A stretch of DNA of 38,240 nt from positions 1 through 38,240 of IMG/VR virus record IMGVR_UViG_3300042923_000172. One strand, written 5' to 3'. The stretch is from a virus. Lineage: Duplodnaviria > Caudoviricetes. Shown one piece after another: positions 19,940 to 37,430 of this stretch. The notes under the pieces were generated by a model, which was not told the DNA's origin, did no database searches, and saw nothing but the letters and a program-made list of their open reading frames with translations. Position 1 is the first letter of the stretch. Each line of letters opens with the position of its first letter. Position numbers and translations under genes: made by a program.

Positions 19940-20425
19940 ATGAGGGTAAACATGAAAGCCGATTTTAAACGAGCCGCCGGGGATGTTAAAACGTGGAGCC
20001 AAACCAAATTGCAACGCATACAAGACACGGTAAACGAAAGTGCTATAAACATACAAAGCGGAGCCAAAAAACGTTGCGTTGTTGATACCGGCCGTTTACG
20101 ATCATCCATTGCTATTGAACCATCCACCGGCCCGGGTTATGCATTACGGGTTGGTACAAAGGTTTTTTATGCGCCGTATGTTGAATTTGGCACCGGTATT
20201 TTTTCGGAACACCCAACCGAGCCGGGCCGCCAAACGCCGTGGGCATTTCCAGTACCGAAAACAGGAAAAAATAAAGATAAGTACAAATTCAAAAAAATCA
20301 CCGCCGAAGATGGCCAAGAATTATTTGTTACCCGTGGATCGAAACCACACCCGTTTTTATTCCCGGCCGCCGAGGAAGAAAGAACCAATTATTTGGCGGC
20401 AATGAGGAGGGTATTAAGTGAGTAG
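19940..20425 (+). CDS. HK97 gp10-like tail component
   Basis: VDTGRLRSSI, YAPYVEFGT, PHPFLFPA. Confidence 0.88.
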   Translation: MRVNMKADFKRAAGDVKTWSQTKLQRIQDTVNESAINIQSGAKKRCVVDTGRLRSSIAIEPSTGPGYALRVGTKVFYAPYVEFGTGIFSEHPTEPGRQTPWAFPVPKTGKNKDKYKFKKITAEDGQELFVTRGSKPHPFLFPAAEEERTNYLAAMRRVLSE

Positions 20426-20828
20426 AGGCCCGTTAAAAACAGCATTATGGCCATTGCAACAAGCTATTTATAACCGATTGGCCAACGATCCAATTTTAAC
20501 CCAAATGGTAACGGCCGTTTATGATGAGGTTGAGGAGGGGGCCATAATGCCATATGTGCAAATTGGCGATGATACAACAACCCCATACGATACTAAAACA
20601 GATTATGGCGAGCAAACAACATTAACATTACATGCATGGAGTGCCGGCCCCGGTAAATCCGAGGCAAAACGCATTATGGGTGCAATATTGCAAGCTATAA
20701 CAGCCGCACCATTAACATTAGAGGGTTTTACTATTGAAGAAATTAAACGGGAGTTTTTAGAAACGTTTAATGATGGCCAAGCCTATCATGGCGTATGCCG
20801 TTTTAGGGTATATATCAAACAATTATAG
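20418..20828 (+). CDS. Tail terminator (DUF3168-like)
   Basis: LQQAIYNRL, VYDEV, PYVQIGD, YHGVCRF. Confidence 0.85.
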   Translation: MSRGPLKTALWPLQQAIYNRLANDPILTQMVTAVYDEVEEGAIMPYVQIGDDTTTPYDTKTDYGEQTTLTLHAWSAGPGKSEAKRIMGAILQAITAAPLTLEGFTIEEIKREFLETFNDGQAYHGVCRFRVYIKQL

Positions 20829-20840
20829 GGAGGTTTTAAA

Positions 20841-21248
20841 ATGCGTGGAGTAGATATTTTAATTCAAGTTGAAAGCAAAGTAACACCGGGAACATATGTA
20901 ACCGTTGGAGGCCAACGAAATGCAACGTTTTCAGAGGAGGCCGAAACTATTGATGTAACAAGCAAAGATAGCGAGGGTTATACTGAAAATGATTACGGTT
21001 TAGGATCGTGGAGTATTTCATGTGATGGCGTTTATGTTGTTGGTAATGCGCAATTAACTCAATTAAGAGATGCGCAACGTAATAAAGAAAAAGTAAAATG
21101 CCGTTGGGTTGAAGAAGGTAGTACACAAGTCGAAGAAGGTTTTGCCGTTGTTACGAGCCGAGAAATCGAGGGGCCGTATGATGGTGAGGCAACATATAGC
21201 GTGGAATTAACAGGAAGTGGAAAGCCAACGTTAGTTACACCGGCATAA
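20841..21248 (+). CDS. Major tail tube protein (TP901-1 family)
   Basis: GGQR, ETIDVTSKDS, WSISCDG, ATYSVELTGSG. Confidence 0.88.
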   Translation: MRGVDILIQVESKVTPGTYVTVGGQRNATFSEEAETIDVTSKDSEGYTENDYGLGSWSISCDGVYVVGNAQLTQLRDAQRNKEKVKCRWVEEGSTQVEEGFAVVTSREIEGPYDGEATYSVELTGSGKPTLVTPA

Positions 21249-21254
21249 TATTTA

Positions 21255-21295
21255 AAAGGCCCGCCAAAATTTTACTATTAATGGTGGGCCTTTTT
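21255..21295 (+). terminator. Rho-independent terminator
   Basis: AAAAGGCCCGCC...GGTGGGCCTTTTT. Confidence 0.7.
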
Positions 21296-21353
21296 ATATT
21301 AAACTATGAATAAGACAAGCTATTATTTTTAAAAATCGAGAGGGGTAAAAGGC

Positions 21354-21755
21354 ATGAACAACAATTTAAAAACATACAAAGAGGTTACATTAAACGGCAA
21401 AGAACATTTATTAAAATTTGATTATAACGCCGTTTGCGATTTAGAGGAGATTTATAACAAAGGTATTGCCGGTATTTTAAAAGAGGAGCAAATTGGTTTT
21501 AGATTAGTAAAAACCTTTTATTGGGCCGGTTTGAAATGGAAAAACCCGGGGTTAACATTAGATCGAGTTGGAAATATGTTAGGTAAGGAAATCCAAGACA
21601 ATGGCAAAAATGTTATGGATTTAATGGGGCCTGTAATGGAGGCGTTGAAAAAGTCGAGATTATTAGGCGCAAACAAAAATACCGATGATGGTTTTGAAGA
21701 TGAAACGGATCAAGACGGAAACGAGCAAGAGGAAAACGAAAACCCAAACGAGTAA
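21354..21755 (+). CDS. Tail assembly chaperone (gpG-like)
   Basis: Position between tube and TMP; LKFDYNAVCDLEE. Confidence 0.8.
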   Translation: MNNNLKTYKEVTLNGKEHLLKFDYNAVCDLEEIYNKGIAGILKEEQIGFRLVKTFYWAGLKWKNPGLTLDRVGNMLGKEIQDNGKNVMDLMGPVMEALKKSRLLGANKNTDDGFEDETDQDGNEQEENENPNE

Positions 21756-22054
21756 AAGGGTTAAATTGGGCCGTAATTAAACAAATTGGTTACGGCCCGT
21801 TGCATTTAACCCCAAAACAATTGGGAAGGTTAACGCATGGCGAATTTTTGGATTTATACGATGGGTTTAAATGGCGGGATAAACGGGCCACGGAGCATTT
21901 TGCACAATTAGCATCATGGACAACCGCACCACATTTAAAACGACCTATTGATCCGAAAAAACTAATGCAAGAAAAGAAACCGAAAAAGAAAACAACCCCG
22001 GAAAAAACGGCCGCCATAGTAAGCGAATTAGAAAAATTAATGGGGGTGAGTTAA
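21743..22054 (+). CDS. Tail assembly chaperone gpGT extension via -1 frameshift
   Basis: Slippery C CCA AAC at 21743-21749; the -1 frame is open through ORF 21800-22054. Confidence 0.8.
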   Translation, partial: PKRVKGLNWAVIKQIGYGPLHLTPKQLGRLTHGEFLDLYDGFKWRDKRATEHFAQLASWTTAPHLKRPIDPKKLMQEKKPKKKTTPEKTAAIVSELEKLMGVS

Positions 22055-24210
22055 TGGCAACCATTGCCGAAATGTTTGTAGATATTGGAGCCGATGCAAG
22101 CCAATTTGAGCGAGAGGCAAACGATATGCAAAAGCAAATGGGCGGTTTGCAAAGTGAAATGCGCACCATGGCCGATACAATGGGTACAAGTTCAACAAAA
22201 ATGGCCCAAGATTGGAAAGCGATGAGTGCAGAAATGCAAAGTGCCATGCGGGCCAATACTGAGAAAATGAAACCATTTAAACAAGCACAACAAGAGGTGC
22301 AATATGGTTTTTTTAAAATGGCCCAAGGGATGAAAGATTACCAAGGTAGTACCGGTGATTTTATGACCGAGTTGGAGGCCATGGGAAAAAAACATAAAAC
22401 GGCAACCGATAATATGTTAAAAAACAATGATGCGGCAAAAATGAGTTTTATACAATCTATTGCCGTTATGAGTGCAAGGAGTACGCAAGCTGAAAAAATA
22501 GCCGCCAATTTTACCAAGATGGGTAACCCGCTTTATACTGTGAATAATGGGTTATTATCGGTTGCGGGAAGTATGAACAAGATAGCAATGGCCGGATCAC
22601 CCGCACGATTAGCATTAGAAATGTTAGGGCCAACCGCTAATATGAAAGATTTGCGAGATATGACCATGATGATCCAACAAGGGTTAATGAGGTTTACCAT
22701 GGTTAGTATTATTGCCGGGGTTGCGGCGGTTGGGTTTTATTCTAATTTACATTCGGCCGCATTAGAAGCGGTACCGGGGTATAAAAAAGCAACCGAAGAA
22801 ATGAGCAAAGCAACCGAGGGTATTTTTAAACCGATGGCCGAGTTATTCGGTTTAATAATGACACCAATTGTTGAGTTAATTACCTTTGTGGCCCAATTGG
22901 CCCAAAAATTTAACGAGGCACATCCGGTATTAGCTAAGATCATACAAGGGTTTATTATGCTAATACCGCTATTAACGCTAATATTATCACCGTTAGCCAT
23001 TGGTATTGGATGGTGGGCCGGACTAAAAGCCGCAATGTTTGGGGTATGGGTATTAATAGGCCCGGTTGTAACTGGATTTGCCGCAATAATGGGTACCGTA
23101 TTAGTTGTTGCCGCCGCAATTACCGCATTAGGGGTTGTATTGTGGGCATTATGGACAAAAACGGATTGGTTTAAAGATGCGGTTATTGGGGCATGGGAAG
23201 CTATAAAAGCGGCCGCAATAAGAATATGGAACGCTATTTATTTCCAAGGAATTAAACCAGCTATTGATGCGTTAATGACGTTTATACAAGTGAATTTATT
23301 GAAATTGCAATTGTTTTGGTATGAGAACGGCGAACAAATAATGAAAATATTAACGATTGTTTGGGGTTTTATTAAAACATACCTAGTAACCCAAATGGCT
23401 ATAATTCAAGGTATTATTGAGGTTGCGTGGACATTAATTAAAAACATTATTGTTACCGTTTGGAATGTAATTAAAATTGCCATCGAAACTGTATTTGGAA
23501 TTATTGGCGGCATTATAAAGTTTTGGTTAGCTTTATTTAAAGGTGATTTTTCCGGTGCATGGGAAGCGATAAAAGGCATTTGGAATACTTATCTAAATGG
23601 CATTAGAGACATTGTGAAAGCATTGTTTGAGGGTTATTTTAGAACGGTTAACGAAACCATGGGCAAAATACTAGAAAAAATTAAAGACATTTGGAATAAA
23701 GCAACGAACGCCGTTAGCACGGCATTAGGTAACGTTGATGAAAACGTAAAAGAGAAATTCGATAGCATCGTTAGTTTTATAACCGGATTAGGACAAACGT
23801 TTTTCAATGCCGGTAAAGGTCTTATTGAAATGATTGGTAAGGGTATTGAAAATGCGGCGGGCGAAGTAGTGGACAAGGTAAAAGACGTTGCGGGTAAAAT
23901 TCGTGATATGTTACCATTTTCACCGGCCAAGGATGGCCCTTTATCCGATTTGGATCGGTTAGATTTTGGCGGCCCAATTGCCGATAGTTTAAAACGAGGT
24001 ATACCAACCATACAACGTTTAATGAGTGAAATGGTAACGATGCCGAGTATTGTACCACCAACAATGCCAAGTTACTCATCCAATGCGATCCAACGAGAAA
24101 AAACGGGGCAAACGGTAATTGTTGAATTAGACGGCCGACAAATTGCCCGTGGTACATTGCCGCATATGGAAAGAGAAATTAGATTAAAAACCGGATTAGT
24201 AATGGGGTAG
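22054..24210 (+). CDS. Tail tape measure protein
   Basis: MATIAEMFVDIGAD start, Ala/Trp periodic helices, hydrophobic segments, PFSPAKDGPL. Confidence 0.9.
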   Translation: MATIAEMFVDIGADASQFEREANDMQKQMGGLQSEMRTMADTMGTSSTKMAQDWKAMSAEMQSAMRANTEKMKPFKQAQQEVQYGFFKMAQGMKDYQGSTGDFMTELEAMGKKHKTATDNMLKNNDAAKMSFIQSIAVMSARSTQAEKIAANFTKMGNPLYTVNNGLLSVAGSMNKIAMAGSPARLALEMLGPTANMKDLRDMTMMIQQGLMRFTMVSIIAGVAAVGFYSNLHSAALEAVPGYKKATEEMSKATEGIFKPMAELFGLIMTPIVELITFVAQLAQKFNEAHPVLAKIIQGFIMLIPLLTLILSPLAIGIGWWAGLKAAMFGVWVLIGPVVTGFAAIMGTVLVVAAAITALGVVLWALWTKTDWFKDAVIGAWEAIKAAAIRIWNAIYFQGIKPAIDALMTFIQVNLLKLQLFWYENGEQIMKILTIVWGFIKTYLVTQMAIIQGIIEVAWTLIKNIIVTVWNVIKIAIETVFGIIGGIIKFWLALFKGDFSGAWEAIKGIWNTYLNGIRDIVKALFEGYFRTVNETMGKILEKIKDIWNKATNAVSTALGNVDENVKEKFDSIVSFITGLGQTFFNAGKGLIEMIGKGIENAAGEVVDKVKDVAGKIRDMLPFSPAKDGPLSDLDRLDFGGPIADSLKRGIPTIQRLMSEMVTMPSIVPPTMPSYSSNAIQREKTGQTVIVELDGRQIARGTLPHMEREIRLKTGLVMG

Positions 24211-24218
24211 GGGGTTGA

Positions 24219-24452
24219 TTGGATTTGATCGTAAAAGTTAATAATCAAACGGTTAACTATGCCCGTAATTCAATTGATGTGGATGATGCTATTGGCCAAA
24301 GGTCAACAGCATCATTTGTAGTCATTGATCGAGAAGGTACCATGAGGTTTAAAAAAGGGCAACAGGTAGAGATATTCCAAGAAGTTGCCGCCAATACCGG
24401 TGATTATGCAACGTGGGATAATGACGATTTAACAAACAATTGGGAGGGATAA
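24219..24452 (+). CDS. Small tail protein, probably the N-terminal portion of the baseplate hub/Tal protein
   Basis: RSTASFVVID...FKKGQQVEI resembles the first beta-strands of tail hub proteins; that fold appears to continue at KIFGGVID in 27120-28709. Confidence 0.55.
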   Translation: MDLIVKVNNQTVNYARNSIDVDDAIGQRSTASFVVIDREGTMRFKKGQQVEIFQEVAANTGDYATWDNDDLTNNWEG

Positions 24453-24455
24453 AAA

Positions 24456-25934
24456 ATGGAATTTACCCCAAATAGTAATTTATACAAATGGAAACCAACA
24501 GACATAAAACTTAATACCATTACCGAAATGGCCGCAAATGCGGAAAAAATAGATAGTGAATTAAAAAATGTTAATGAACAATTGGCGGAAACTGTGAAAC
24601 AAATTAGTGTAAAAGATGTACGTTTTGGAGCGAAAGGTGATGGTATTACAGATGACACTAGTGCTATTCAATCGGCTTTCGAGTATGCAAAAGTAAACGG
24701 AATCTCAAAAGTTAAAATACCGATTGGAACTTATAAGATAACTAAAATCACCATTGATTTTAATGGGGTGACGATTGAAGGGGATGGAATAGATTTAACT
24801 GTTCTAAATTCCACACTTTCCGCTGGAGGGGCTTTTAGTTTCGGTAGTGTTTCTGCCCCATTAAAAAATATTGTTGTTAAAGATATGACCATACAAGGGA
24901 ATACGTCCTCTGCAAATCAATCAGCATTGCGTTTTTATGGGGTAGATACGTTAGAGGTAACTAGAGTTAAAATGAATAAGTTTGGATTTTGTGGGATAAC
25001 CTCTTTTGAAAATATTTTTCAAAACGTCACCATTACTCAGTGTCAGTTTATAGAAACAGTTGAAAGCGGGATGAGTGTTCGACCTTGCAACAATGTAATA
25101 GTTGATGGCTGCATTTTTGACAATATTTACGGTAACGCAAATCCACCTCATGGTGTTTATTTCAGAAGTACACCACAATACGGATCGAAAAACTTAACTG
25201 TTCGTGGTTGTATTTTTAGGAATACACCTGCTTCAACGATTGGAAATGCTTATGCCGTTAAGATTGTTTGTGATAACCCAACAACGGACTTACCAACAAC
25301 AGATGTCATTGTACAAGGCAACTACATTGAAAATTATTTTGCGGGTGTTTGGGTAGTTGGTGCTAAACGAGTTCATATCGCAAACAACCGTATCGAATCA
25401 ATGTCTGAAATTCAAACTCAACGTGCTGCTATTGGGTGTAGCAATCTATCCGAAGATATTGTAATTGCCAATAATAATATTAATGCTCGTAATCTCACTA
25501 ATTCATTGAATTTAGATGGTTGTAATCGAATCTTAATTGTAGGGAATGTAATGGAAACCGAGAAAGCCATCCCAATCTCACTAAAAAACATTAACGATTT
25601 AACCATTCAAAATAATGTTATTAAAGAAACATTGTCCACGGGGTCTAATAATGCCGTTATTGATTTTGATGGTGTTTGTACAGATTTTAAGATTAAAAAT
25701 AACACATTTAAAATTAGTCAACGGGGTATTCAACAACGAAACACATGTACGATTACGGGACTTGTTATTAGTGGTAACAGCATCAATCCTATTGAGGGCA
25801 GTACTCCAGTTTACGCTATTAACCTAGCAGGAACCATCGCAAACACGATTGTTACAAACAATGACTTAGTTGGGGCGGGAATTACCACACTTAAAACGTC
25901 TACCCAAGCAGGAAATATTACCGCATATGCTTAA
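24456..25934 (+). CDS. Tailspike/appendage with right-handed beta-helix (pectin-lyase-like, putative depolymerase)
   Basis: N-terminal anchor TPNSNLYK..D..KID; FGAKGDGITDDTSAIQ; repeated I.I.NN.I beta-helix rungs. Confidence 0.85.
   Translation: MEFTPNSNLYKWKPTDIKLNTITEMAANAEKIDSELKNVNEQLAETVKQISVKDVRFGAKGDGITDDTSAIQSAFEYAKVNGISKVKIPIGTYKITKITIDFNGVTIEGDGIDLTVLNSTLSAGGAFSFGSVSAPLKNIVVKDMTIQGNTSSANQSALRFYGVDTLEVTRVKMNKFGFCGITSFENIFQNVTITQCQFIETVESGMSVRPCNNVIVDGCIFDNIYGNANPPHGVYFRSTPQYGSKNLTVRGCIFRNTPASTIGNAYAVKIVCDNPTTDLPTTDVIVQGNYIENYFAGVWVVGAKRVHIANNRIESMSEIQTQRAAIGCSNLSEDIVIANNNINARNLTNSLNLDGCNRILIVGNVMETEKAIPISLKNINDLTIQNNVIKETLSTGSNNAVIDFDGVCTDFKIKNNTFKISQRGIQQRNTCTITGLVISGNSINPIEGSTPVYAINLAGTIANTIVTNNDLVGAGITTLKTSTQAGNITAYA
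24571..24600 (+). repeat. Cassette-boundary site A (read in frame as VNEQLAETVK)
   Basis: TTAATGAACAA TTGGCGGA AACTGTGAAAC. Confidence 0.7.
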
Positions 25935-25960
25935 TGAACAATCGGACGATTATGCGCAGT
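25931..25960 (+). repeat. Cassette-boundary site B
   Basis: TTAATGAACAA TCGGACGA TTATGCGCAGT; contains the tailspike stop codon. Confidence 0.75.
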
Positions 25961-25991
25961 AGATTATAAAATTCAATCAGCTTGGTAATAA

Positions 25992-26027
25992 CTAACTATG
26001 AGGGCCGCAAACCTTCATAGTTTTTTA
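25992..26027 (+). terminator. Rho-independent terminator after the tailspike gene
   Basis: AACTATGAGGG-ccgcaaa-CCTTCATAGTT-TTTTT. Confidence 0.75.
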
Positions 26028-26109
26028 TTAAATAAATTAGCATAATTTAAAGTAACGATATTTACTAAATGGACAAGTTGTGATATATTGGAAATAGAGG
26101 GGGTATTAT

Positions 26110-26829
26110 ATGATTGGCGTGATTTTCGGAAATTTAACTGTATTGGGCGAAGTAGGTAAGAACAAAAGAGGTATTTTATTTGAATGTATTTGCAAGTGTG
26201 GAAACAAAAGAGTTTTTCCGGGTAAAGATTTAAGGAGCGGCAATAATAAAAGTTGCGGTTGTTTATTAAAGAAACATGGAATGTCGAGCACACGGATTTA
26301 TATATCTTGGCAAAACATGAAAAAAAGATGCAACGATCCGAATTACAAGGATTTTAAAAATTATGGTGGCCGTGGCATTAAATATTGTGAAAAGTGGGAA
26401 ACGTTTGAAGGGTTTTATGAGGATATGAAAGAAGGTTATGAGGATAGTTTAACATTGGATAGAATCAATGTAGATGGAGATTACACCCTAGATAATTGCC
26501 GTTGGGTTACTTTAAAAGAACAAAGTAACAATAAACGTAACAATCATTTTTTAGAGTATAACGGCGAAGTTTTAACGCTATCTCAAATGGCTAATAAATA
26601 CAACATTGATTTTGAATTGTTTCGCCATCGAATAAAAAAAGGTTGGTCAGTTGAAAAGGCTTTATCTAATAAAACAGAATTAGAGGTTATAAGTTTTAAA
26701 GGTGAAATAAAAACAGTTTCAGAGTTTGCTAAAGAATATGGCATGACCTATCATCAATTAAAAAAACGATTAATGAGGAATTGGACGGTTGAAAGAGCGT
26801 TAACTCAACCATTAAGAAAAAGACAGTAA
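26110..26829 (+). CDS. Putative HNH homing endonuclease (YGGRGI-type)
   Basis: CICKCG, SCGC, YGGRGIKYC, LDRINVDGDYTLDNCRW; duplicated C-terminal HTH-like repeats. Confidence 0.8.
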   Translation: MIGVIFGNLTVLGEVGKNKRGILFECICKCGNKRVFPGKDLRSGNNKSCGCLLKKHGMSSTRIYISWQNMKKRCNDPNYKDFKNYGGRGIKYCEKWETFEGFYEDMKEGYEDSLTLDRINVDGDYTLDNCRWVTLKEQSNNKRNNHFLEYNGEVLTLSQMANKYNIDFELFRHRIKKGWSVEKALSNKTELEVISFKGEIKTVSEFAKEYGMTYHQLKKRLMRNWTVERALTQPLRKRQ

Positions 26830-26855
26830 ATCGAAATTGTTAAGGGGTGATAGTG

Positions 26856-27008
26856 TTGAAGATAAACCGCAGACGTAAAAGAGCAATAGCAAAGGCTGAA
26901 AAAGAAATGGACAGATACGAGCAATGGAAAGATTTCGTTGAAGCTGTTGGGGGTTCTTTGCAAAAAGGAAAAGACGGAAAATTGTATGGAGTTTTGAGAG
27001 TTGATTAA
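26856..27008 (+). CDS. Hypothetical protein (50 aa; not in ORF track)
   Basis: MKINRRRKRAIAKAEKEMDRYEQW...; RBS GGGGTGA. Confidence 0.5.
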   Translation: MKINRRRKRAIAKAEKEMDRYEQWKDFVEAVGGSLQKGKDGKLYGVLRVD

Positions 27009-27119
27009 TACGCCCAATTAACGGATGCTAAAAAGAAGGAGCAACATAAAAAGTATCTAATTCAATAAATAAAGATGGTAAAATAAAGATAATAAATCCA
27101 TTAAAGGGAGGGGGTTTTT

Positions 27120-28709
27120 ATGTTGACATGGGAAAGTGAATTAAAGACCGATACATTAAAAATATTTGGCGGTGTGATTGATACACAACCGGTAACCGAT
27201 ATTACGTTATTTGGAACGGGTAAACGTTGGGCCATACAATGTACTGATTACCATTACTTAACTGATAAACGTATTGTAGCCAAGTATTATGAGGATATGG
27301 CCGCCGGCCAAATTGTAAGGAATTTAATTACTCTTTATTTTGCCGCCGAGGGTATAACAGCCGGAAATATACAAGATGGGCCGATTATTACCGAGGCGGT
27401 TTTTAATTATGTAACCGGCACCCGTTGTATGGAGGGATTGAGTGAAAAAGCGGGGTTTGAATGGAATATAAACTACGATAAAACGTTAGATTTTTACGAA
27501 CGTTCAACATTTACGGCCCCGGTTACCATTACCGAAACAAGCAAAATAAAAAACGTAACGGTTGAAGATGAGGCCAAGGATTACCGAAATAAACAATTTG
27601 TGCGAGCCGGGAAAGATTTAACCGATCCACAAACGGAAAAATTTAAAGGTAATGGATCGCAACAATCGTTTACATTAGGATTTCCATTAGGTAAAGAGCC
27701 GCAAATTAAAATTAATGGGGTTGCGTTAAACAATGCGGCTGATATTGGTATTAAAGGGTTAGAGGATGGCAAGCAATGGTATTGGAGCAAAGGGGATGCA
27801 ACTATAACCCAAGAAAAAGAGGCCGTTCCATTGTTAGACACCGATGAAATAGAAATAACATACCAAGGGTTATTTGATATTGTTGCCGTTACATGGGATC
27901 AAAACGAGGTTGAAACCCGAAAGGCCGCAGAAAATAATAGCGGCATATACGAGAATGTTATTGATGAGCCATATGCAACGAACCGGGCCGCCGCATTTGA
28001 AACAGCAAATACCAAATTAAAAAGGTATGCTAAAATCGGGAAAAAAATTAGGTTTGATACATTTATAACCGGGTTTAAAGCGGGCCAATTGGTGATGGTT
28101 GATATGCCTAGTTTTGATATTAACAATAGCCAATTTTTAATTGAAAGTATTGCGGCAACTGAGTTAGGTACCGAAGATGGACGATGTACTTATAAAATTA
28201 CGGCCGTTGATGGAGCCGCAACAGGTGGTTGGGCCGACTTCTTTAAAAAGATGGCAACCCGTGGAGAAAATTTTGTATTAAGAGAAAACATTAAAGAAGA
28301 TGAAGTATTAGTGTTATTAGATCAATTTTCTAAAACATGGACAAGCACCGAGAGGCCTAACCTTTTTTATGAATTATATCCTAGTATGGATTTATACCCG
28401 GCATCCGATTTATTTCCTTCATTGGGTGATGATAATGAGGTAACGTATATTGCCTTATATGATGCAACCGGGGAGTTTTTTAGAAAAAGAATTACCAAGC
28501 AAGAGCGAACCGATACCCAAATTGTTAGTACTACATTTATTTCACCATTCGAGGCAAACGAGGTGCAAATAACGCATGTGGGTTGGTTTGGGGCCAATGC
28601 AACAGATGAAATTGGTAGCGGTTTATTAATAGATAAACAGATTTATAGTAAATTCAAAGATAAAGTTGAAGCTATACAAATTGATAAAATTGATTTGAAA
28701 GGGTGGTAA
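27120..28709 (+). CDS. Baseplate hub/Tal-like tail protein
   Basis: Position; IFGGVID, EDMAAGQIV, C-terminal LYPSMDLYPASDLFPS fibre-docking-type repeat. Confidence 0.7.
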   Translation: MLTWESELKTDTLKIFGGVIDTQPVTDITLFGTGKRWAIQCTDYHYLTDKRIVAKYYEDMAAGQIVRNLITLYFAAEGITAGNIQDGPIITEAVFNYVTGTRCMEGLSEKAGFEWNINYDKTLDFYERSTFTAPVTITETSKIKNVTVEDEAKDYRNKQFVRAGKDLTDPQTEKFKGNGSQQSFTLGFPLGKEPQIKINGVALNNAADIGIKGLEDGKQWYWSKGDATITQEKEAVPLLDTDEIEITYQGLFDIVAVTWDQNEVETRKAAENNSGIYENVIDEPYATNRAAAFETANTKLKRYAKIGKKIRFDTFITGFKAGQLVMVDMPSFDINNSQFLIESIAATELGTEDGRCTYKITAVDGAATGGWADFFKKMATRGENFVLRENIKEDEVLVLLDQFSKTWTSTERPNLFYELYPSMDLYPASDLFPSLGDDNEVTYIALYDATGEFFRKRITKQERTDTQIVSTTFISPFEANEVQITHVGWFGANATDEIGSGLLIDKQIYSKFKDKVEAIQIDKIDLKGW

Positions 28710-28712
28710 TCC

Positions 28713-29555
28713 ATGCCGACTTATAATAAAACCACATGGAACACAACAACAACGCCGTTAAGTGTAACAAACTTGCAAAAAATAGAGGATGGTATAGAGG
28801 TTGCTTATAATAACGTTGTATCGTTTGGTGTAACAACAATGGCAACAACCAATATTTATGCTGTAACAGTAACACCGGCCCCAACGGCGTATGTTGATGG
28901 TATGGGTGTGGTTGTAAAAATCAATGCCAATAGTACAGGAGCCGCAACATTAAACGTAAACGGATTAGGAGCAAAAGCATTAAAAAAAGCAAATGGTAAT
29001 GATGCGTTGAATTTAAAAACGGGCGGCATTTACACATTCAGATACAATGCAACAACTGGAAATTTTATCTTACAGGGTGAAGGGGGGGCAGGTAATGCAC
29101 AACCTAGTGATGTAGTAACAGGAAAAACATTCACCAACGATTTAGGCGAACAAGTAGGAACGTTAGAAGTAGGGAAAAAGTTTGCAAACGGCACCGTTAC
29201 TTCAAGTGCCGGGCAAGTAGAATGTTATGTAGTGATGGGCCAATATAATACAGTCCTTACCACAACGCCGTATGTAGAAATAGTAGGATTAAGTTTTTCA
29301 CCAAGTCGAGTGATATTATGGCAAGGTAATGCCTCAACCGATAGTATGATAGTGGTAAATTATGATTCTATTAATGCTTTTTATAAAAACACAGCTTACA
29401 ACATTACCATTACCACAGCAAATGCGCTTAATTCATCACATGCTGTAACTATTTACCAAGGCAATGATGCATTAAATTTAAAAGTCACACAATCATTAGT
29501 TAGGTTGCCCGTACCAAGTAACGGAACCGTATGGAATTGGATGGCTATTCAATAA
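28713..29555 (+). CDS. Tail fibre/receptor-binding protein
   Basis: YNKTTW...NLQKIEDGI anchor; GAATLNVNGLGAK...GNFILQGEGG. Confidence 0.8.
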   Translation: MPTYNKTTWNTTTTPLSVTNLQKIEDGIEVAYNNVVSFGVTTMATTNIYAVTVTPAPTAYVDGMGVVVKINANSTGAATLNVNGLGAKALKKANGNDALNLKTGGIYTFRYNATTGNFILQGEGGAGNAQPSDVVTGKTFTNDLGEQVGTLEVGKKFANGTVTSSAGQVECYVVMGQYNTVLTTTPYVEIVGLSFSPSRVILWQGNASTDSMIVVNYDSINAFYKNTAYNITITTANALNSSHAVTIYQGNDALNLKVTQSLVRLPVPSNGTVWNWMAIQ

Positions 29556-29572
29556 TAATAAGGGGTGAAACT

Positions 29573-29965
29573 ATGAATATAGGGCGCAAAATATATTACG
29601 AAAAAGCAACCGGAAACGTTTTAGTTGATACCGGTGAACGATCCGGGGCCGTGATGGTTCCGAATACAATAGAAAACGATTTTAAAACATACATTGCATT
29701 AAGCGGAAGAACATCGGAAACGGTAGGGGTTAAAGAGTTAAGTTATGGGCAATTCAAGGAAGATTTTTTAAATTGCAATGGATATAAAATTAATCCATCA
29801 ACATTGGCGTTAGAATTTAGTTATCCGAGTGCAACACCGGAGCAACCGCCGGAATTTAGAGAGCCGTTAACCGTACAAATAGATAAAATCGAACAAGAAA
29901 AAAACACTCTAAAAAGTGGACAGGCACAAATTTTATTAAAGTTAATGCGGAATAACATTAAATAA
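29573..29965 (+). CDS. Conserved tail-fibre-associated protein
   Basis: MNIGRKIYYEKATGNVLVDTGE; lies between the fibre gene and XkdX. Confidence 0.65.
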   Translation: MNIGRKIYYEKATGNVLVDTGERSGAVMVPNTIENDFKTYIALSGRTSETVGVKELSYGQFKEDFLNCNGYKINPSTLALEFSYPSATPEQPPEFREPLTVQIDKIEQEKNTLKSGQAQILLKLMRNNIK

Positions 29966-29978
29966 AGGAGGGCCGGCC

Positions 29979-30110
29979 ATGTTTGAAATAATTAAAGATT
30001 TTTATGATAGTGGGTTTTATACCAAAAGTGAAATTGCAGAATTTACGGCGGCCGAATGGATCACACCGGAACAATATCAAGAAATAACCGGAGAAACATA
30101 CGAAGGATAA
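29979..30110 (+). CDS. XkdX-family protein (43 aa; not in ORF track)
   Basis: IKDFYDSGFYTK...WITPEQYQEITGETY. Confidence 0.85.
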   Translation: MFEIIKDFYDSGFYTKSEIAEFTAAEWITPEQYQEITGETYEG

Positions 30111-30134
30111 GAGGCTTTTTTTAGCCTCTTTTTT
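30110..30134 (+). terminator. Rho-independent terminator
   Basis: AGAGGCT-loop-AGCCTCT followed by a T-run. Confidence 0.7.
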
Positions 30135-30203
30135 ATTTATGCCAATCTATCAATATATGTTTTATAATGGATATGTATTACCATAATTTGAGAGGTGGGC
30201 GAT

Positions 30204-30485
30204 ATGGTGGAAAATCAAGTATTAAATAAATTGGTTGATAGTTTTGATGATTTTAAAGAGCGGTTAATACGGATTGAAGAAAGATTAAAAAACATTGATG
30301 ATATGAAAAATGACGTTGATAATTTAAAAATTGGACAAGCCCAAACCGATGCGAGCGCAAAGAGTGCGCATAAGCGGTTAGACGTATTAGAAGCAAACCA
30401 AACATGGTTATGGCGCACTGTTATTGGGGCTATTATTGTTGGTTCCCTTGGTGTATTGTTTGCCGCATTAAAGGGAGGGGCATGA
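30204..30485 (+). CDS. XhlA-like lysis protein
   Basis: Coiled coil, NQTWLWRTVIGAII, C-terminal TM helix. Confidence 0.8.
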   Translation: MVENQVLNKLVDSFDDFKERLIRIEERLKNIDDMKNDVDNLKIGQAQTDASAKSAHKRLDVLEANQTWLWRTVIGAIIVGSLGVLFAALKGGA

Positions 30486-30486
30486 C

Positions 30487-31134
30487 TTGCAAATTTCCCA
30501 AGTTGGAATTGATCTAATAAAGAAATTTGAGGGTTGTAGTTTACGAGCATATAAACCGGTAAAAAGTGAATTGCATTTTACTATTGGTTATGGACATTAT
30601 GGCCCAGATGTTAAAGAGGGTGAAATTATTACACAAGCCAAGGCCGATGCATTATTAAAAAAGGATTTACAACGGTTTGTTGACGGGGTAAATAAATGGG
30701 TTAAAGTTAAATTAAACCAAAACCAATTTGATGCGTTAGTTAGTTTTAGTTTTAATTTGGGTTTAGGCAATTTATCCACATCCACATTACTTGAATATGT
30801 AAATCATAACGATTTTGAAAGAGCCGCTAATGAGTTTGATAAATGGATAAAGGCCGGCGGGGTAGTATTGGCCGGATTGGTGAAAAGACGAAAAGAGGAA
30901 AAAGAGTTATTTTTAAAATCAACATTGCCGCAACCGACAAAACAAGAGGGGGTTATTAATTTGTATAATCCGGGTTCACCAAGTTTAATCCAATCGACTA
31001 AAAATGTATTGGAAAAAATGGTTAAAGAGGGTAAGTTAAATAAAGTTTGGGTAGATAAGTTGGAAAAAGGCGAATTAACTGTTAGTGAGGCAACGGCATT
31101 GTTATTTGTTGCTATTGATCGAGGCGCAGTATGA
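30487..31134 (+). CDS. Endolysin, GH24 lysozyme
   Basis: IKKFEGC, TIGYGH, QNQFDALVSFSFNLG, LAGLVKRRKEE. Confidence 0.92.
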   Translation: MQISQVGIDLIKKFEGCSLRAYKPVKSELHFTIGYGHYGPDVKEGEIITQAKADALLKKDLQRFVDGVNKWVKVKLNQNQFDALVSFSFNLGLGNLSTSTLLEYVNHNDFERAANEFDKWIKAGGVVLAGLVKRRKEEKELFLKSTLPQPTKQEGVINLYNPGSPSLIQSTKNVLEKMVKEGKLNKVWVDKLEKGELTVSEATALLFVAIDRGAV

Positions 31135-31325
31135 AAAAGAAAATTGAGGCATTAATTGAGGTGCGCAAGATTATCGCATTAATGTTTGCCGGTTTATTTG
31201 TTTATATGGCCGTTACCGAAACACTAAATGCAAACGATGTATTAAATATTGTTTTAATGGTTATTGGTTATTATTTTGGAAAAAGTACCGCATTGGATAA
31301 ACCAACAGAAGGAAAGAAAGACTAA
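31131..31325 (+). CDS. Holin (two TM helices)
   Basis: VRKIIAL...VIGYYFGKS, next to the endolysin. Confidence 0.75.
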   Translation: MKKKIEALIEVRKIIALMFAGLFVYMAVTETLNANDVLNIVLMVIGYYFGKSTALDKPTEGKKD

Positions 31326-31396
31326 CCAACGAATTATATAATAGGTTGGTAAGTTTTCAAGGGGCAAAAATATTTTGTCTCTTTTTTTATTTTAAG

Positions 31397-31440
31397 TGTT
31401 TACAATGTAAATAACACATGGTATATTTACATTGTAAACA
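31397..31440 (+). promoter_or_regulatory. SigA-like promoter flanked by two inverted operator copies
   Basis: TGTTTACAATGTAAATA...TATTTACATTGTAAACA; TTTACA-17-TATATT. Confidence 0.65.
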
Positions 31441-31458
31441 AACGAAAGGAGGCAAACA

Positions 31459-31578
31459 ATGGGTTGTATCGTGACGGGGTTCATAATAGTTGGGTTAATA
31501 TCGTTGGAATTTATCGTGTTTAAATGTTTGAGCAAAAAAACACAAAAGAAAATTTTAAATTTTATTGATGAAATATAA
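31459..31578 (+). CDS. Small membrane protein (39 aa)
   Basis: MGCIVTGFIIVGLISLEFIVFKCLSKK...; RBS AAAGGAGG. Confidence 0.6.
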   Translation: MGCIVTGFIIVGLISLEFIVFKCLSKKTQKKILNFIDEI

Positions 31579-31697
31579 AAACCCGTTGGCGGCGTAGACC
31601 AACGGGCGAGGGGTAAAGAACCGGATCAATAGGCGATTGAGGCCCGGCGTAATTAAATTATATACCGCCGGCCAATAATTAACAACGGAGGTTAAGA

Positions 31698-31919
31698 ATG
31701 GCTATACGAGTTTATTTTAAACAAGGTAATTTAACTAATTTTAGAGAAGTTGCACCCATTAATTTATTGGGTGAATCCGTTAGACTATTTTTAAAAGCGG
31801 GAGGCCGTTTTTATTTTAAAGTAGTTGAGGCCGGCCCGGAATACATTACAGGTTTTGACGATGAGGGGTTAAATTTAACCATCGCCGTTGAGGATATTGA
31901 TTATGTTTTAGGGGGGTAA
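31698..31919 (+). CDS. Hypothetical protein
   Basis: ORF track; RBS GGAGG. Confidence 0.6.
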   Translation: MAIRVYFKQGNLTNFREVAPINLLGESVRLFLKAGGRFYFKVVEAGPEYITGFDDEGLNLTIAVEDIDYVLGG

Positions 31920-31922
31920 AAC

Positions 31923-32150
31923 ATGGGTAAAAATTTATTGGAAGGTTTAGAAGGTAAAAAGGTTTTTCCGTTGTTTACTAAACAAGGATTGGCCGCACGT
32001 TGGGGCGTTGATCGTCAAACGGTGCAAAATTGGAGTACAAGGCATACGGATTTTTGCAAACCGATTAACGGCGTAATCGTTGGGGCCGGATCGTATTATC
32101 CTTTTTATGAGGTTGAACGTTATGAGACATTAAGGGGGTTGGGGAAATGA
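31923..32150 (+). CDS. HTH DNA-binding protein (AlpA/MerR-like)
   Basis: TKQGLAARWGVDRQTVQNW. Confidence 0.7.
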   Translation: MGKNLLEGLEGKKVFPLFTKQGLAARWGVDRQTVQNWSTRHTDFCKPINGVIVGAGSYYPFYEVERYETLRGLGK

Positions 32151-32284
32151 CATTAGAAGAATTAATGAACGAGGAGTTGTTAGAGGTTTTGAAAGAAGCG
32201 GTTGAAGAATTGCCGGGCGGTGGCGCAAAAGCTAGAAATTGGTATTGCGAAGTGAAAGAAGAAGTTTTGAGCCGTATGGATTAA
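32147..32284 (+). CDS. Hypothetical protein (45 aa), stop inside site C
   Basis: MTLEELMNEELLEVLKE...VLSRMD; ATGA-coupled. Confidence 0.55.
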   Translation: MTLEELMNEELLEVLKEAVEELPGGGAKARNWYCEVKEEVLSRMD

Positions 32285-32310
32285 TGAATAATCGACCGAA
32301 ATAGCGACAT
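32281..32310 (+). repeat. Cassette-boundary site C
   Basis: TTAATGAATAA TCGACCGA AATAGCGACAT. Confidence 0.7.
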
Positions 32311-32326
32311 AAAAGGATGTGGAGAA

Positions 32327-32911
32327 ATGAACGAAGAAATCCAATTTTTAAAGGATTTACAAAACGAATTAAAATCACAAGAAAATGACTGTCAAGCAAG
32401 CCCGCGTTTTTGGGTGATTAAAGACTACCGTAAAGTTGTGGGGCACGAAGATTATGACACTGGAAGCACAGAACACTTTCACAATGATGGTGACCATACC
32501 ACCTTTAAAAATTTCGCTGAGTTAAAGGTATTTATCGAGGAATATTTTGAGGAAGATGTTGAATCAGATGAAGAATTACAACAACTACTTTCAGATGAAA
32601 ACGAGAGTTTTTATGAATTGTGGGATTATGTTGAATCTAACCTCAATGACGATGGATATTTTTCTTCAGTTTTCATGAAAGAAGAAAGTTACCTTGTGCC
32701 TAACACGATGTTCTTGACTAAGGAAGAAGCTAAAAGACATTTGAAATTAAATAATTATCATTATTCTCCAAAGGCACACACCTACGCCATGACTGCATGG
32801 AGAGCACCTAAAGTAGAACGGTTATTGAAGTTATTAGAAACATTCGATTGGGATTCAATTAAAGTATTAGAAAAAGCTTATAGTGATGGTACTGATTACA
32901 AAAGAAGTTAG
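32327..32911 (+). CDS. Acidic hypothetical phage protein (cassette C-D)
   Basis: QENDCQASPRFW...MFLTKEEAKRHL...AHTYAMTAWRAP; stop inside site D. Confidence 0.75.
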   Translation: MNEEIQFLKDLQNELKSQENDCQASPRFWVIKDYRKVVGHEDYDTGSTEHFHNDGDHTTFKNFAELKVFIEEYFEEDVESDEELQQLLSDENESFYELWDYVESNLNDDGYFSSVFMKEESYLVPNTMFLTKEEAKRHLKLNNYHYSPKAHTYAMTAWRAPKVERLLKLLETFDWDSIKVLEKAYSDGTDYKRS

Positions 32912-32937
32912 TGAACAATACGATAAAACCACAAACT
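32908..32937 (+). repeat. Cassette-boundary site D
   Basis: TTAGTGAACAA TACGATAA AACCACAAACT. Confidence 0.6.
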
Positions 32938-33040
32938 TTCGGTTTCTAGGAGAATTGAGTGGTATGGTTTACCGAATGTCTTTTGAAATGGATATCGACG
33001 GAAAAACAAAGGAATATATGGTGATAGTTAATAACTTAGA

Positions 33041-33059
33041 TTAGCGAACAATTTGGAAA
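33041..33059 (+). repeat. Cassette-boundary site E (left arm only)
   Basis: TTAGCGAACAA TTTGGAAA, then RBS GGAGG. Confidence 0.55.
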
Positions 33060-33072
33060 GGAGGAATAAAAA

Positions 33073-33228
33073 ATGCAAGATAAATATCTAATCATTTATC
33101 AAAATTCAGCTTGTTTGTTTAGAAGAGAAATTGTCAGTGTAGAGGATTTGAGTTATTGGGTAGATAAAATCGTTAATGATTATAAAGGTGAGATTTTCAC
33201 CATTAGCAAATGCTTAGTTAGTGCGTAA
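33073..33228 (+). CDS. Hypothetical protein (51 aa; cassette E-F)
   Basis: MQDKYLIIYQNSACLFRRE...CLVSA; RBS AAGGGAGG. Confidence 0.6.
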   Translation: MQDKYLIIYQNSACLFRREIVSVEDLSYWVDKIVNDYKGEIFTISKCLVSA

Positions 33229-33247
33229 TTCGAAAATTTCACGACAA
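33218..33247 (+). repeat. Cassette-boundary site F
   Basis: TTAGTGCGTAA TTCGAAAA TTTCACGACAA. Confidence 0.55.
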
Positions 33248-33437
33248 AACAAAAATAGTTTTAATGACCATGCATTTTTTACTATATGGCCGCATAGCTA
33301 TATAGCAAGCATGCTAATAGCTAGTGAGATGATCCGGGAGAAATTTTCCCGGATTTTTTTATTTTTTCGGAAATCTATTTACAAAATTATAAAAATACGA
33401 TATTATCGCTAATATCAAAATGAAGGAGGAATTAGCA

Positions 33438-34070
33438 ATGAATAGATTTTCAAGGCCGGTAGCTTTTAATAAAACAAAGGATGTTGACGTTGCTATTTTA
33501 AAACATTTGGAAGGAGTGGCCTCATTTTCCGGGTATGTAAAAAAATTAATAATACAAGATATTAACGTTGGCGGAACAATGAAAAAAAACACGTTAAAAA
33601 AACACTTAGAACATATTGATTTGGATCGGGTTACGATAATCGAAAAATTACCAAAAACCAAGTTGCATGCAAGATGGGTAACAATGAAACATCGTTGTTA
33701 TGAAGTTACCAATAATAACTATGAAAATTATGGCGGGCGTGGCATAACCGTTTGCGATCGTTGGCACGACTTTAATTTATTTTTAGAAGATGTTTTTGAT
33801 AGTTATATTGACCACGTTATAGAATACGGTGAAAAAAATACAACGCTTGAAAGAGTGGATAACAATAAAGGTTATAGTCCAGAAAATTGCCGTTGGGCAA
33901 CACATGAGGAACAAGTTACTAACCGCCGTTATAGATACAGTTATGAATACAACAATAAAACATATAATACGGCGCATAGCTTGGCAATTGAATTGGGTAT
34001 AAGTACGCAAGCTGTAAATAACATGGTGAAAAAAGGAGAAGTAAAAAAACGAGCCAACAAGGCCCGTTAA
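33438..34070 (+). CDS. RHH-like domain fused to a YGGRGI-type HNH endonuclease
   Basis: N-terminal RPVAFN...SFSGYVKKLIIQD; C-terminal YGGRGITVCDRW...LERVDNNKGYSPENCRW. Confidence 0.7.
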   Translation: MNRFSRPVAFNKTKDVDVAILKHLEGVASFSGYVKKLIIQDINVGGTMKKNTLKKHLEHIDLDRVTIIEKLPKTKLHARWVTMKHRCYEVTNNNYENYGGRGITVCDRWHDFNLFLEDVFDSYIDHVIEYGEKNTTLERVDNNKGYSPENCRWATHEEQVTNRRYRYSYEYNNKTYNTAHSLAIELGISTQAVNNMVKKGEVKKRANKAR

Positions 34071-34183
34071 AATAATATCCAACTAATTTCTTCAAGTAAC
34101 CACATAAATCCAACACATACCAAGAGGAATAAGACTAAACCAGAATAAAGTAAAATAACTAATTTATTTTCGTTTAAATCCAT
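34067..34183 (-). CDS. Antisense membrane micropeptide (38 aa)
   Basis: MDLNENKLVILLYSGLVLFLLVCVGFMWLLEEISWILF; RBS GGAGG. Confidence 0.6.
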   Translation of the reverse strand: MDLNENKLVILLYSGLVLFLLVCVGFMWLLEEISWILF

Positions 34184-34517
34184 ATAAATCCTCCAAAACA
34201 GTTTTAGCGGTCGGGCAAGGATTTGGGCAAATTCTAGTAGAAGCCCAACCGCATAATTTTATTATCGTCAAACAATCACAAAACAATACATGCAAAGTTG
34301 GCCATTTCGGAATTAAAAACGGAATGGTTTTTTTATTTTTATTTTTTGTGTTTTTGGAATAGGACAAATTATATACGGAATATTCTTTATTAAATACCGC
34401 AACAGAAGAAAAACAGGAATATTCCAAACCGCCATTTATAAAGGTTTTGCGGTAGAAAAGAACATTCCTATTTTCAGAAACTATTTACGCAGTAAATATT
34501 AAAAAGGGAGTGGTGAA

Positions 34518-35795
34518 ATGATATTCGAGGTTGGATCGTCAATCATTATGGCCGGCATAGCGGGGTTTGCTTATTTTAAAACAAATGGACCGGCAACAAA
34601 TGACAAAGAAAAAATTCAGAAAATATTCGATAATTCAAATTGGACCGGCAAAAACGGCGAAACAATTCGATTGCACAGAAAGGCAAGTTTTAAAGGTGGC
34701 ACAGAGTATGTTTATCAATTGCCGCTAGGTTTTGACCGTAAAAAGATTGAGAGCCACAAACACATTTTAGAAGATGGGTTGAACGTTAAACAAAAAATTG
34801 AATTTGATCCAAGCGAATTATTAAAAATCAATTGGAGGCAACCGATCGTAAAACAAATTAGAAAAATTCTAACAGACAAGAAAACAGCTAAGAAGGAAAT
34901 AGAAATTAATTTTGATGGAATGTTGCGGATCAAAGTTTATAACGAACAAATGGATAACAAAATTGATTGGGCCGAAAGTATGTTAAAACCCGGAACCTAT
35001 TCGGTAGTTATTGGCGCAACAAGGGATGGCCTAATTTATCACGATTTCGATAAATCGAAGCATTTAATTATTGCAGGGGTTCCGGGGTCGGGGAAAAGTG
35101 TCGTAATGAAAATGATTATTATCTCTTTAGTTCTTTCCAACCCGAATAACGTTGTTTTTAGTCTAATTGATTTAAAGGGTGGCCCGGCGTTTGCTAGGTT
35201 TAGAAATACCAAACAAGTTAAAAACTTAGGAGTTGACAACGAACAAGCGAAAAGCATTTTAAGAGACGTTAAAGAGGAAATGGATAACATTTATAAAAAT
35301 GTATTAGTGCCAAATGGTTATGAGGATGTAAGTGAGGCCGGCATAAAAAAACGGCATTTTATTATCGTGGATGAGGCGGCGGATTTAGCAAGCGATAAAG
35401 AGGCTGTTGAGTTATTAACCGATATAGTACGAAAAGGAAGAGGGAGCGGCCATTATGTCATTTATGCCACTCAATACCCAACAGTCCAAACGGTTGCAAG
35501 CCAAATAAAACGGAACATACCGGCCCGGCTAACCTATGTATTAGATAGTGCGATTGCATCAAATGCGGTATTAGATACCAATGGGGCGGAGGAATTACCG
35601 GAGATACCCGGTAGAGGGATTTATAAGATGGTTAAATCGCAAATTATCCAAACCCCATTTATAAGTAACAAAGACATAGAAACACTAATTAAACCGCACG
35701 TTATTATACAAGCACGAAAGGATGGGCAACATGGACAAAACGGCGGCCAAGCAACAACGGATCGAAAACATTCTATTGAGTTTAAAAAGATTTGA
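34518..35795 (+). CDS. FtsK/SpoIIIE (VirD4/coupling-protein-like) ATPase with N-terminal membrane anchor
   Basis: HLIIAGVPGSGKS, IDLKGG, FIIVDEAADL, RKGRGSG, ATQYP. Confidence 0.9.
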   Translation: MIFEVGSSIIMAGIAGFAYFKTNGPATNDKEKIQKIFDNSNWTGKNGETIRLHRKASFKGGTEYVYQLPLGFDRKKIESHKHILEDGLNVKQKIEFDPSELLKINWRQPIVKQIRKILTDKKTAKKEIEINFDGMLRIKVYNEQMDNKIDWAESMLKPGTYSVVIGATRDGLIYHDFDKSKHLIIAGVPGSGKSVVMKMIIISLVLSNPNNVVFSLIDLKGGPAFARFRNTKQVKNLGVDNEQAKSILRDVKEEMDNIYKNVLVPNGYEDVSEAGIKKRHFIIVDEAADLASDKEAVELLTDIVRKGRGSGHYVIYATQYPTVQTVASQIKRNIPARLTYVLDSAIASNAVLDTNGAEELPEIPGRGIYKMVKSQIIQTPFISNKDIETLIKPHVIIQARKDGQHGQNGGQATTDRKHSIEFKKI

Positions 35796-36318: not shown

Positions 36319-36330
36319 GGAGTTGGAACA

Positions 36331-36459
36331 ATGAAACAGAAAGCGAAAAAACCGATCAAGAAAAAACCAACGAAAAAGAAAAAGATTTCAGCTAAACAAA
36401 TTGCTACCGCCGTTGGATTTGGATTTAAAGTTTATAAGGCCATTAAACGGAGAGGATGA
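36331..36459 (+). CDS. Small highly basic protein (42 aa)
   Basis: MKQKAKKPIKKKPTKKKKIS...; RBS AAGGAG. Confidence 0.5.
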   Translation: MKQKAKKPIKKKPTKKKKISAKQIATAVGFGFKVYKAIKRRG

Positions 36460-36986: not shown

Positions 36987-37042
36987 GATAATAAATATTC
37001 AGCATAACCTAATAACATGATGATAAAGAAATATAAAATCAT
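36983..37042 (-). CDS. Antisense membrane micropeptide (19 aa)
   Basis: MILYFFIIMLLGYAEYLLS; RBS AAGGAG 9 nt upstream. Confidence 0.45.
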   Translation of the reverse strand: MILYFFIIMLLGYAEYLLS

Positions 37043-37400: not shown

Positions 37401-37430
37401 GTTTACAAAGTAAACAAAGTGAGGTAATAT
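37401..37430 (+). promoter_or_regulatory. SigA-like promoter with GTTTAC-N3-GTAAAC operator
   Basis: TTTACA-17-TAATAT; same palindrome as at 4128. Confidence 0.65.

Follow-up and report, generated by a model that had tools for sequence, protein, structure and literature searches.

The tips of tailspikes usually determine which host can be infected, and their exchange is normally ascribed to chance recombination. In T-even phages, the His boxes of the fiber genes are repeated junction elements for module exchange. Integrons (attI/attC, with the integrase IntI) carry one-gene cassettes whose stop codons overlap the site, and attC needs a hairpin.

As set out in those sections of Mavrich et al. 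2018 that concern its layout (PMC6109161), the Rin shufflon of Bifidobacterium prophages joins a constant RBP N-terminus to variable C-termini. The expressed Rin gene has two direct sites, one internal and one right after its 3' end. Two to three silent inverted Rv cassettes and a rin gene lie adjacent, variation occurs by inversion at asymmetric rix sites of 11 bp, and the enzyme is predicted to be a XerD-like tyrosine recombinase of the armless type. The pdif/dif modules of Acinetobacter plasmids, in the parts of PMC13141974 that treat them, depend on a recombinase acting in trans; single modules are flanked by inverted sites, and a single module may be replaced when spacers match or nearly match on each side. 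For dif itself, portions of PMC2731167 describe inner arm bases that are the most conserved and a center that varies between species. T4-type phages have PeSL cassettes, which are described in sections of PMC2839356 as promoter-terminator stem-loops at module junctions.

Here, we analyzed a 38,240-nt record (the window, meaning the whole stretch of DNA), which is a complete phage genome with terminal repeats. A scan of its 51 plus-strand ORFs identified siphovirus-type head and tail genes together with FtsK, Replic_Relax, Erf, a Gam-like protein, Sipho_Gp157, and RusA. We infer a Bacillaceae-type host for this soil phage, because the tape measure is nearest to that of Geobacillus phage GBK2 (top match, 51%) and the accessory-region matches are Bacillus phages in 34/34 cases. 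GGCC/CCGG is unusually frequent in the native genome (388 sites) and CT/TC is scarce; therefore, imported DNA is readily visible. Profile searches detected four HNH endonuclease genes (10-636, 2186-2659, 26110-26829, and 33420-34070), and an HNH-like start recurs from 38124 to the end, probably as the terminal repeat of the first of them.

The tailspike ORF (24456-25934, + strand) encodes 492 aa. Residues 1 to 38 (24456..24570, +) form a constant anchor of native composition (Markov LLR of -0.13 per base), which is followed by site A (24571..24602, +), a 13-6-13 dyad with the spacer GGCGGA that is read in frame as VNEQLAETVKQ (aa 39-49). The remainder (24603..25930, +) is a foreign cassette for a right-handed, pectate-lyase-like beta-helix, recognized by PF12708 and PF13229, by fold matches, and by composition. 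Site B (25931..25962, +; spacer GGACGA) is a dyad in direct orientation to A; its left arm is identical to that of A at 12/13 bases and contains the TAA stop codon (25932-25934). These results confirm what a first-pass annotation had read from the letters, namely, a translated site between anchor and beta-helix and a second copy that shares left-arm bases and supplies the stop.

The cassette is predicted to be a receptor-binding or depolymerase domain. Folds similar to it, at identities of 12-18%, are those of AlgE4, PfbA, and phage tailspikes; therefore, enzyme activity is predicted only. The sole other match to the cassette domain is P0096, a stand-alone gene (53-54%) that begins at tailspike residue 50 and shares the tailspike C-terminus. 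Of 18 phmmer hits to aa 1-47, 12 N-terminal matches were kept as anchor homologs, and 6 long or repetitive proteins were excluded. By eye, an LA[EDQ]-type junction is present in 10/12 homologs (8 under a strict pattern), at a distance of 37-190 residues from the protein start; it is followed by a GDSL domain, a beta-helix, an unassigned domain, or a stop. At the family level, then, conserved anchors are joined to unrelated C-terminal domains at this junction, with a second site after the gene, as the first-pass annotation had anticipated, and homology does not run continuously across A. One homolog, P0087, has 48 aa that comprise the anchor, LAE, and three residues before a stop, whose position is exactly that set by a B right arm; this gene is possibly an empty, cassette-less allele.

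As in the expressed Rin gene, one crossover-type site is internal to the tailspike gene and a second, in direct orientation, follows closely on its end. Unlike Rin, the locus has a single tip and 32-bp dyads, none of them inverted, and the variation is seen between genomes; silent inverted cassettes are absent. Six-frame searches of the complete genome found neither tyrosine (PF00589) nor serine (PF00239) recombinases, with controls positive in 14/14 and 12/14 genomes, respectively. By analogy, the tailspike locus works most like the Rin shufflon, yet it is not a member. The suggestion that the locus is distinct from invertase shufflons therefore stands in that it has no silent cassettes or invertase, but it has to be tempered by the same layout in the expressed Rin gene, as far as the description of that gene in PMC6109161 goes.

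With pdif/dif, as described in parts of PMC13141974, PMC5357621, and PMC2731167, the dyads share two arms around a 6-bp spacer. In contrast to those sites, A and B are direct rather than inverted, and A is translated. Canonical dif was rejected as an identification, since the conservation pattern is the opposite: inner arm bases are variable, whereas conservation is highest in the first two columns of the spacer. With PeSLs, the locus shares repeated junction elements where phage modules exchange, but the dyads have no stem-loop, and one is in a coding frame under DNA-level constraint. The likeness to integrons lies in the stop codons that overlap sites C, D, and F farther downstream and in the recombinase found next to a site in some phages. 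An attC-like hairpin reading was discarded, given no folding above shuffles and no arm covariation (p=0.13). No IntI-type integrase was found in the window, and the candidate Xer-like enzyme described below reaches 103 bits, far below the TIGR02249 cut-off of 265. A diversity-generating retroelement was likewise rejected: no RT is encoded by the 51 plus-strand ORFs, and the 20 largest repeat families listed for 20000-38240 include no long repeat pair.

We lean, with modest confidence, toward the reading that the cassette was put behind the anchor by a Xer-like tyrosine recombinase, in an event in which co-resident genomes cross over twice, each time at matched spacers. Judged from their sequences, A and B belong to a degenerate family of 13-6-13 dyads common to Bacillota phages. 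In rankings by a position weight matrix (PWM) built from other genomes, with the own genome left out, sites A, B, and C take ranks 1, 2, and 4 of 76,416 positions. When the PWM is built from in-frame sites alone, again of other genomes, site B falls within the top 0.2% of 75-nt stretches. We found no description of this site family in the full-text literature, a search whose coverage leaves out most subscription journals.

It is scarcely credible that LA[EDQ] is a coiled-coil neck conserved as protein only and that B is a chance 12-mer. Site A does lie at the end of a predicted helix: in an AlphaFold model (pLDDT 76, two-sequence alignment), aa 19-47 are helical, A is at the helix end, and the beta-helix comes next. 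However, the in-frame sites score higher than their synonymous recodings in 10/10 cases (p 0.0009-0.035; p=0.0075 for site A) under a PWM of non-coding B sites from other genomes, and the combined test gives a Fisher p=2e-8 over 7 lineages chosen by protein context. Conversely, when the profile is made from in-frame sites of other genomes, it recovers the non-coding B as the top match directly after the stop in 7/10 genes, and in the remaining 3/10 B lies 347-613 bp downstream, behind small genes. Taken together, these results largely refute conservation of the peptide alone.

The DNA-level family has a single sharp dyad axis at the center of the 6-bp spacer (2.59 versus ≤0.73 elsewhere, over 25 sites), and its arms match at 6.6/13 positions versus 3.3 at random places. 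The sites do not fold above shuffles (mean z of -0.3 to -0.7), and pairing between a site's own arms is not above that with shuffled partners (p=0.13). The sharp axis and arm matching, with no hairpin or covariation, make the dyad the sequence signature of a double-stranded protein-binding site. Such a protein-type dyad could also be the operator of a dimeric regulator, or of a nucleoid-type protein, that travels with modules, in which case swaps would be incidental to gene and domain boundaries. In agreement with this alternative, which we consider very doubtful, intergenic copies sit between stop codons and ribosome binding sites (RBSs), RBS-like sequence also following them in G447 and Lietuvens. 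Yet an operator gives no reason for an in-frame place at the tip junction, a post-stop partner, or slot-specific spacers. In this regard, A and B spacers within a genome are identical at 3-4/6 positions in 9/9 genomes tested, whereas between genomes A-A spacers average 4.4/6 and B-B spacers 4.2/6.

The base composition of the window sets the cassette apart. The first-pass annotation had reported no GGCC or CCGG between A and B, and the gap from 24530 to 26003 (1473 bp) is indeed the longest in the genome; about 1e-4 gaps of that length are expected under a Poisson model. The eight CT dinucleotides that it had counted in 24781-24960 are also there, at what it took for ordinary usage, but CT between A and B (36.9 per kb) is 2.6 times the genome-wide rate of 14.1 per kb. 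According to a cross-validated Markov model, the top foreign segment is 24649-25997 (95 bits). Its left 5-bit edge interval (24542-24672) contains A, and its right edge (25978-26021) is 16-59 nt past B.

A second foreign segment (32251-33143) has edge intervals that contain sites C and F. Site C (32281..32312, +) is intergenic, contains the stop of a 39-aa ORF, is followed by an RBS, and forms the left edge of the segment. A 194-aa accessory gene (32327..32911, +; phrog_3205) separates it from site D (32908..32939, +), a weak copy that contains the stop of that gene; D scores 15.6 with itself in the PWM and takes rank 94 when left out. Site F (33218..33249, +) contains the stop of a 51-aa ORF at the right end of the accessory array. 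C, D, and F thus bound this array, D weakly. No site flanks the homologs of the 194-aa gene in A16R4 and SPbetaL1. In the window, the sites above threshold are all on the + strand, and there is a single tip. An additional site E (33041) was rejected, as only its left arm matches (score of -10.5, rank 1599). The D-E interval had been proposed to be an orphan C-terminal module; it is an open frame (45 codons), but it was rejected as such a module, since it has its own RBS-like GGAG and ATG, looks like a 26-aa mini-gene, and ends on half a match at E. Array genes with stops overlapping C, D, and F are small and occupy 32165-33249. A contig from another organism in run X1 gives a match that begins at 32286, within site C. 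The Markov model also gives a third foreign-like segment, weaker than the other two (29033-29445, 25 bits), in the C-terminal half of a 280-aa fiber gene; it has no good site, the best score being 8.8 at 29439.

The foreign DNA that reaches past B would fit an improbable alternative, that is, that the sites are relics: the cassette would have been made in an ancestor or donor, would have arrived by ordinary mosaic exchange as part of a larger block that spans the anchor, the cassette, B, and flanking DNA, and would now be inert. A genome without the enzyme is consistent with this, as are the points, about 250 bp before A and about 100 bp after B, at which CPD1 and CPQ4 part from site-free relatives. 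Against it, the anchor is native in composition up to A, A and B are the best-scoring sites in the genome, and more copies (C-F) bound a second foreign segment. We retain site-specific replacement as the preferred reading for the window.

Protein similarity led to 26 phage tail loci. Both A and B are present in 9/26 (the window, L110, L128, L138, Lietuvens, CPD1, CPQ4, CBP1, and L194), which is not a frequency estimate, since the queries finding CPD1/CPQ4 and CBP1 included the A peptide and the locus set is not independent of the sites. One clear site is present in 3/26 (L195, TPELB_ph1, and phiCp-D), and 14/26 have none (L137, Page, Pascal, Palmer, E2, AP45, phiEf11, IME197, phiCP39-O, phiCP34O, XP41-N3, 0105phi7-2, L192, and L196). 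Outside this count, the profile found both sites in L046, L048, L096, and L042 and site A in L039, L049, and L098. The same A and B pair is used with unrelated anchors in CBP1, Lietuvens, and L194. A search of the word index with the anchor returned no close relative, only the phage itself. The exact site-A pattern matched 0 loci, and the strict site consensus matched 1 that was already known. The anchor profile had no match in sets of 1, 7, and 53 bacterial genomes; a pattern search across 61 genomes gave 2 matches, and a degenerate anchor pattern gave 30 loci, with true anchors in 3. No site scoring >17 was found at four chromosomal beta-helix loci.

Two close pairs with sites in both partners are informative for swaps, one of them (L046/L048) noticed via the PWM, and in these pairs 4/4 breakpoints fall ≤3 nt from the 6-bp spacer. 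In L046/L048, whose flanks are 89-95% identical, identity ends 2 nt after the A spacer and returns 2 nt ahead of the B spacer, and the interval is occupied by unrelated tips and small genes. In the cultured phages CPD1 and CPQ4 (flanks, 91-100%), identity is lost after base 3 of the A spacer and regained 3 nt before the B spacer. Spacers are identical at 3/4 of the swap-pair junctions, and the remaining one, the A spacer of CPD1 versus CPQ4, shows 2/6 differences. With each swapped cassette come the right arm of its A site and the left arm of its B site, as expected from crossover at the spacer centers. Since A is at a domain boundary and B at a gene end, homologous recombination in the flanks would leave a similar trace.

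Breakpoints at the motif, as the first-pass annotation had proposed, are thus seen in 2/2 site-bearing pairs, but site-free relatives (phiCP39-O, 34O, XP41-N3, and the Enterococcus pair) break elsewhere, and no site was found at breakpoints in L008/L009, L026/L027, L054/L055, L034/L036, or the Enterococcus and Pagevirus pairs. Likewise, its main claim, that the site swaps tips onto a constant anchor, finds support at the family level in site-bearing pairs of other phages, but no swap, excision, or variant of the window's own cassette was seen. Namely, in two soil runs (X1 and X2) from which this DNA may derive, the phage is present as one contig of 38,143 nt; the contigs of both runs span the tailspike region in one piece and contain no A-B joint or alternative tip, and contigs drop rare variants.

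These swaps might alternatively reflect dyads that act as short conserved homology islands, in or near which Erf, Gam-like, and RusA proteins or the host RecA exchange tips by ordinary recombination with no dedicated recombinase, in the manner of PeSL cassettes or T-even fiber motifs. The genome does encode Erf, Sipho_Gp157, and RusA without a site-specific recombinase; no recombinase was found in either swap pair, tail genes without sites swap too, and PeSL-mediated shuffling is documented in the sections of PMC2839356 that address it. We nevertheless regard this alternative as rather unlikely, because sites that are only loosely alike between genomes are a poor annealing substrate, and the two-fold symmetry around the 6-bp center is not accounted for by homology on its own. 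Homology also leaves unexplained a synonymous constraint that matches the non-coding copies, from Bacillus to Clostridium phages, and the Xer-like gene beside a site in four loci.

Those four loci, L195, L042, TPELB_ph1, and phiCp-D, are other phage loci in which a Xer-like recombinase adjoins tail genes with at least one site. Both sites are clear only in L042; L195 has no clear B, and TPELB_ph1 and phiCp-D have no clear A. In L195, a 328-aa Xer-like recombinase lies between fiber genes and the nozzle gene, and the upstream fiber gene has A; this enzyme matches the XerC, XerD, and XerA models at E≤4e-61, all below cut-off. Its 52% homolog in L042 ends 73 bp after a tail gene with an in-frame A and a post-stop dyad. 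In TPELB_ph1 and phiCp-D, the recombinase is encoded between a tail appendage gene and holin, and the top site of the locus overlaps or follows the appendage stop (scores of 18.1 and 11.8, respectively); TPELB_ph1 carries a second annotated integrase. Ten phage records match the L195 recombinase, of which three were examined. The homolog in L199 sits among restriction-modification-like genes, and no convincing site was found with the homologs in L034 and L008/L009. By its position, the Xer-like family is a candidate for the enzyme acting on the dyads.

As for the site-bearing phages themselves, PF00589 is also absent from CPD1, CPQ4, and CBP1; therefore, the CPD1/CPQ4 swap pair is without the enzyme. 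No recombinase was found in the L046/L048 records, which are partial. PF00589 is present elsewhere in the genome in G447 and Lietuvens. Members of the Xer-like family annotated as "integrase" lie directly behind tail appendage genes at L197 4652-5846, L198 4788-5834, L195 3669-4655, and L042 14850-15874. A gene annotated as "integrase" also occurs in L155/L156/L161 (CPD1, CPQ4, and phiCP39-O), with no PF00589 match in CPD1 or CPQ4, and the syntenic gene in phiCP34O and XP41-N3 carries the annotation P-loop ATPase or helicase.

Under the preferred reading, the foreign beta-helix cassette, lying between two directly oriented dyads, would have entered by crossover within the 6-bp centers. The Xer-like tyrosine recombinase would be borrowed in trans from another phage, a prophage, or the host. 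Tip replacement would require two crossovers, A x A' and B x B', rather than excision; replacement would be favored over excision and loss because the A and B spacers differ within a genome and are closer A to A and B to B between genomes. A comparable replacement has been proposed for single pdif modules, in those parts of PMC13141974 that discuss them. A is read in a frame that avoids the TAA of the arm; therefore, any incoming tip would fuse to the anchor. B-type and intergenic copies would instead use their arms as stop codons. Such a swap would change the surface polysaccharide that is recognized.

The tailspike gene is itself inserted in another tail gene. A hub N-terminal piece (24219..24452, +; 77 aa) ends in an acidic Trp peptide, W-x-x-D-D-L...W-E, and matches the N-terminus of 59/76 hub homologs, whose intact forms are about 570 aa. 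The C-terminal piece (27120..28709, +; 529 aa) restarts with M-x-x-W-x-x-E-L, the point at which the hub homologs P0011, P0013, P0015, and P0017 also restart. Hence the tailspike and HNH genes interrupt the hub gene after about residue 56. The HNH gene (26110..26829, +; phrog_374) is of near-native composition and lies outside the A-B cassette, inside the split hub gene.

The same Trp peptides flank the split in L110, L128, and L138, where podovirus-type nozzle genes are split around anchor-bearing tailspikes. In L137, they are kept as an internal insertion, and the anchor gene is upstream; in Page, Pascal, and Palmer, both insertion and anchor are absent. Acidic Trp peptides are therefore common to unrelated sipho- and podovirus tail proteins, and from these sequences we infer that they are likely a portable docking loop for the anchor. 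Loci of the Trp-peptide type comprise window 24219-28709, L110 3910-7838, L128, L138, L046/L048 8353-11071, and L137 7435-9330. In Geobacillus E2 and Bacillus 0105phi7-2, an O-antigen polymerase/ligase-like gene on the opposite strand directly follows the tail appendage gene (L157 5395-6885 and L189 6427-7869).

Overall, the feature is real and family-wide, and it is a variant of known recombinase-served tail-tip variation. A broader reading, which we put forward tentatively and with more doubt than conviction, is that Bacillota phages share one address-coded recombination standard, with a Xer-like enzyme carried by some, a communal tip library, and an anchor held in a portable Trp-rich docking loop. 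If so, the spacer would designate the slot: GGC-type at the in-frame tip joint, GGA/GAA-type after the stop, and CGA-type between accessory genes. Phages without a recombinase of their own, from Bacillus to Clostridium, would then take their host-recognition tips from a common stock. Modules would plug in at two nested levels, namely, the tip on its anchor and, in several phages, the anchor gene in a docking loop that splits unrelated hub or nozzle genes. The occurrence of the site across Bacillus- and Clostridium-type phages and of a candidate enzyme in the cultured phage TPELB_ph1 makes such inter-phage exchange testable. It would extend the shufflon principle from inversion inside one genome to exchange among genomes and, if true, would give phages a plug-in route for changing hosts.
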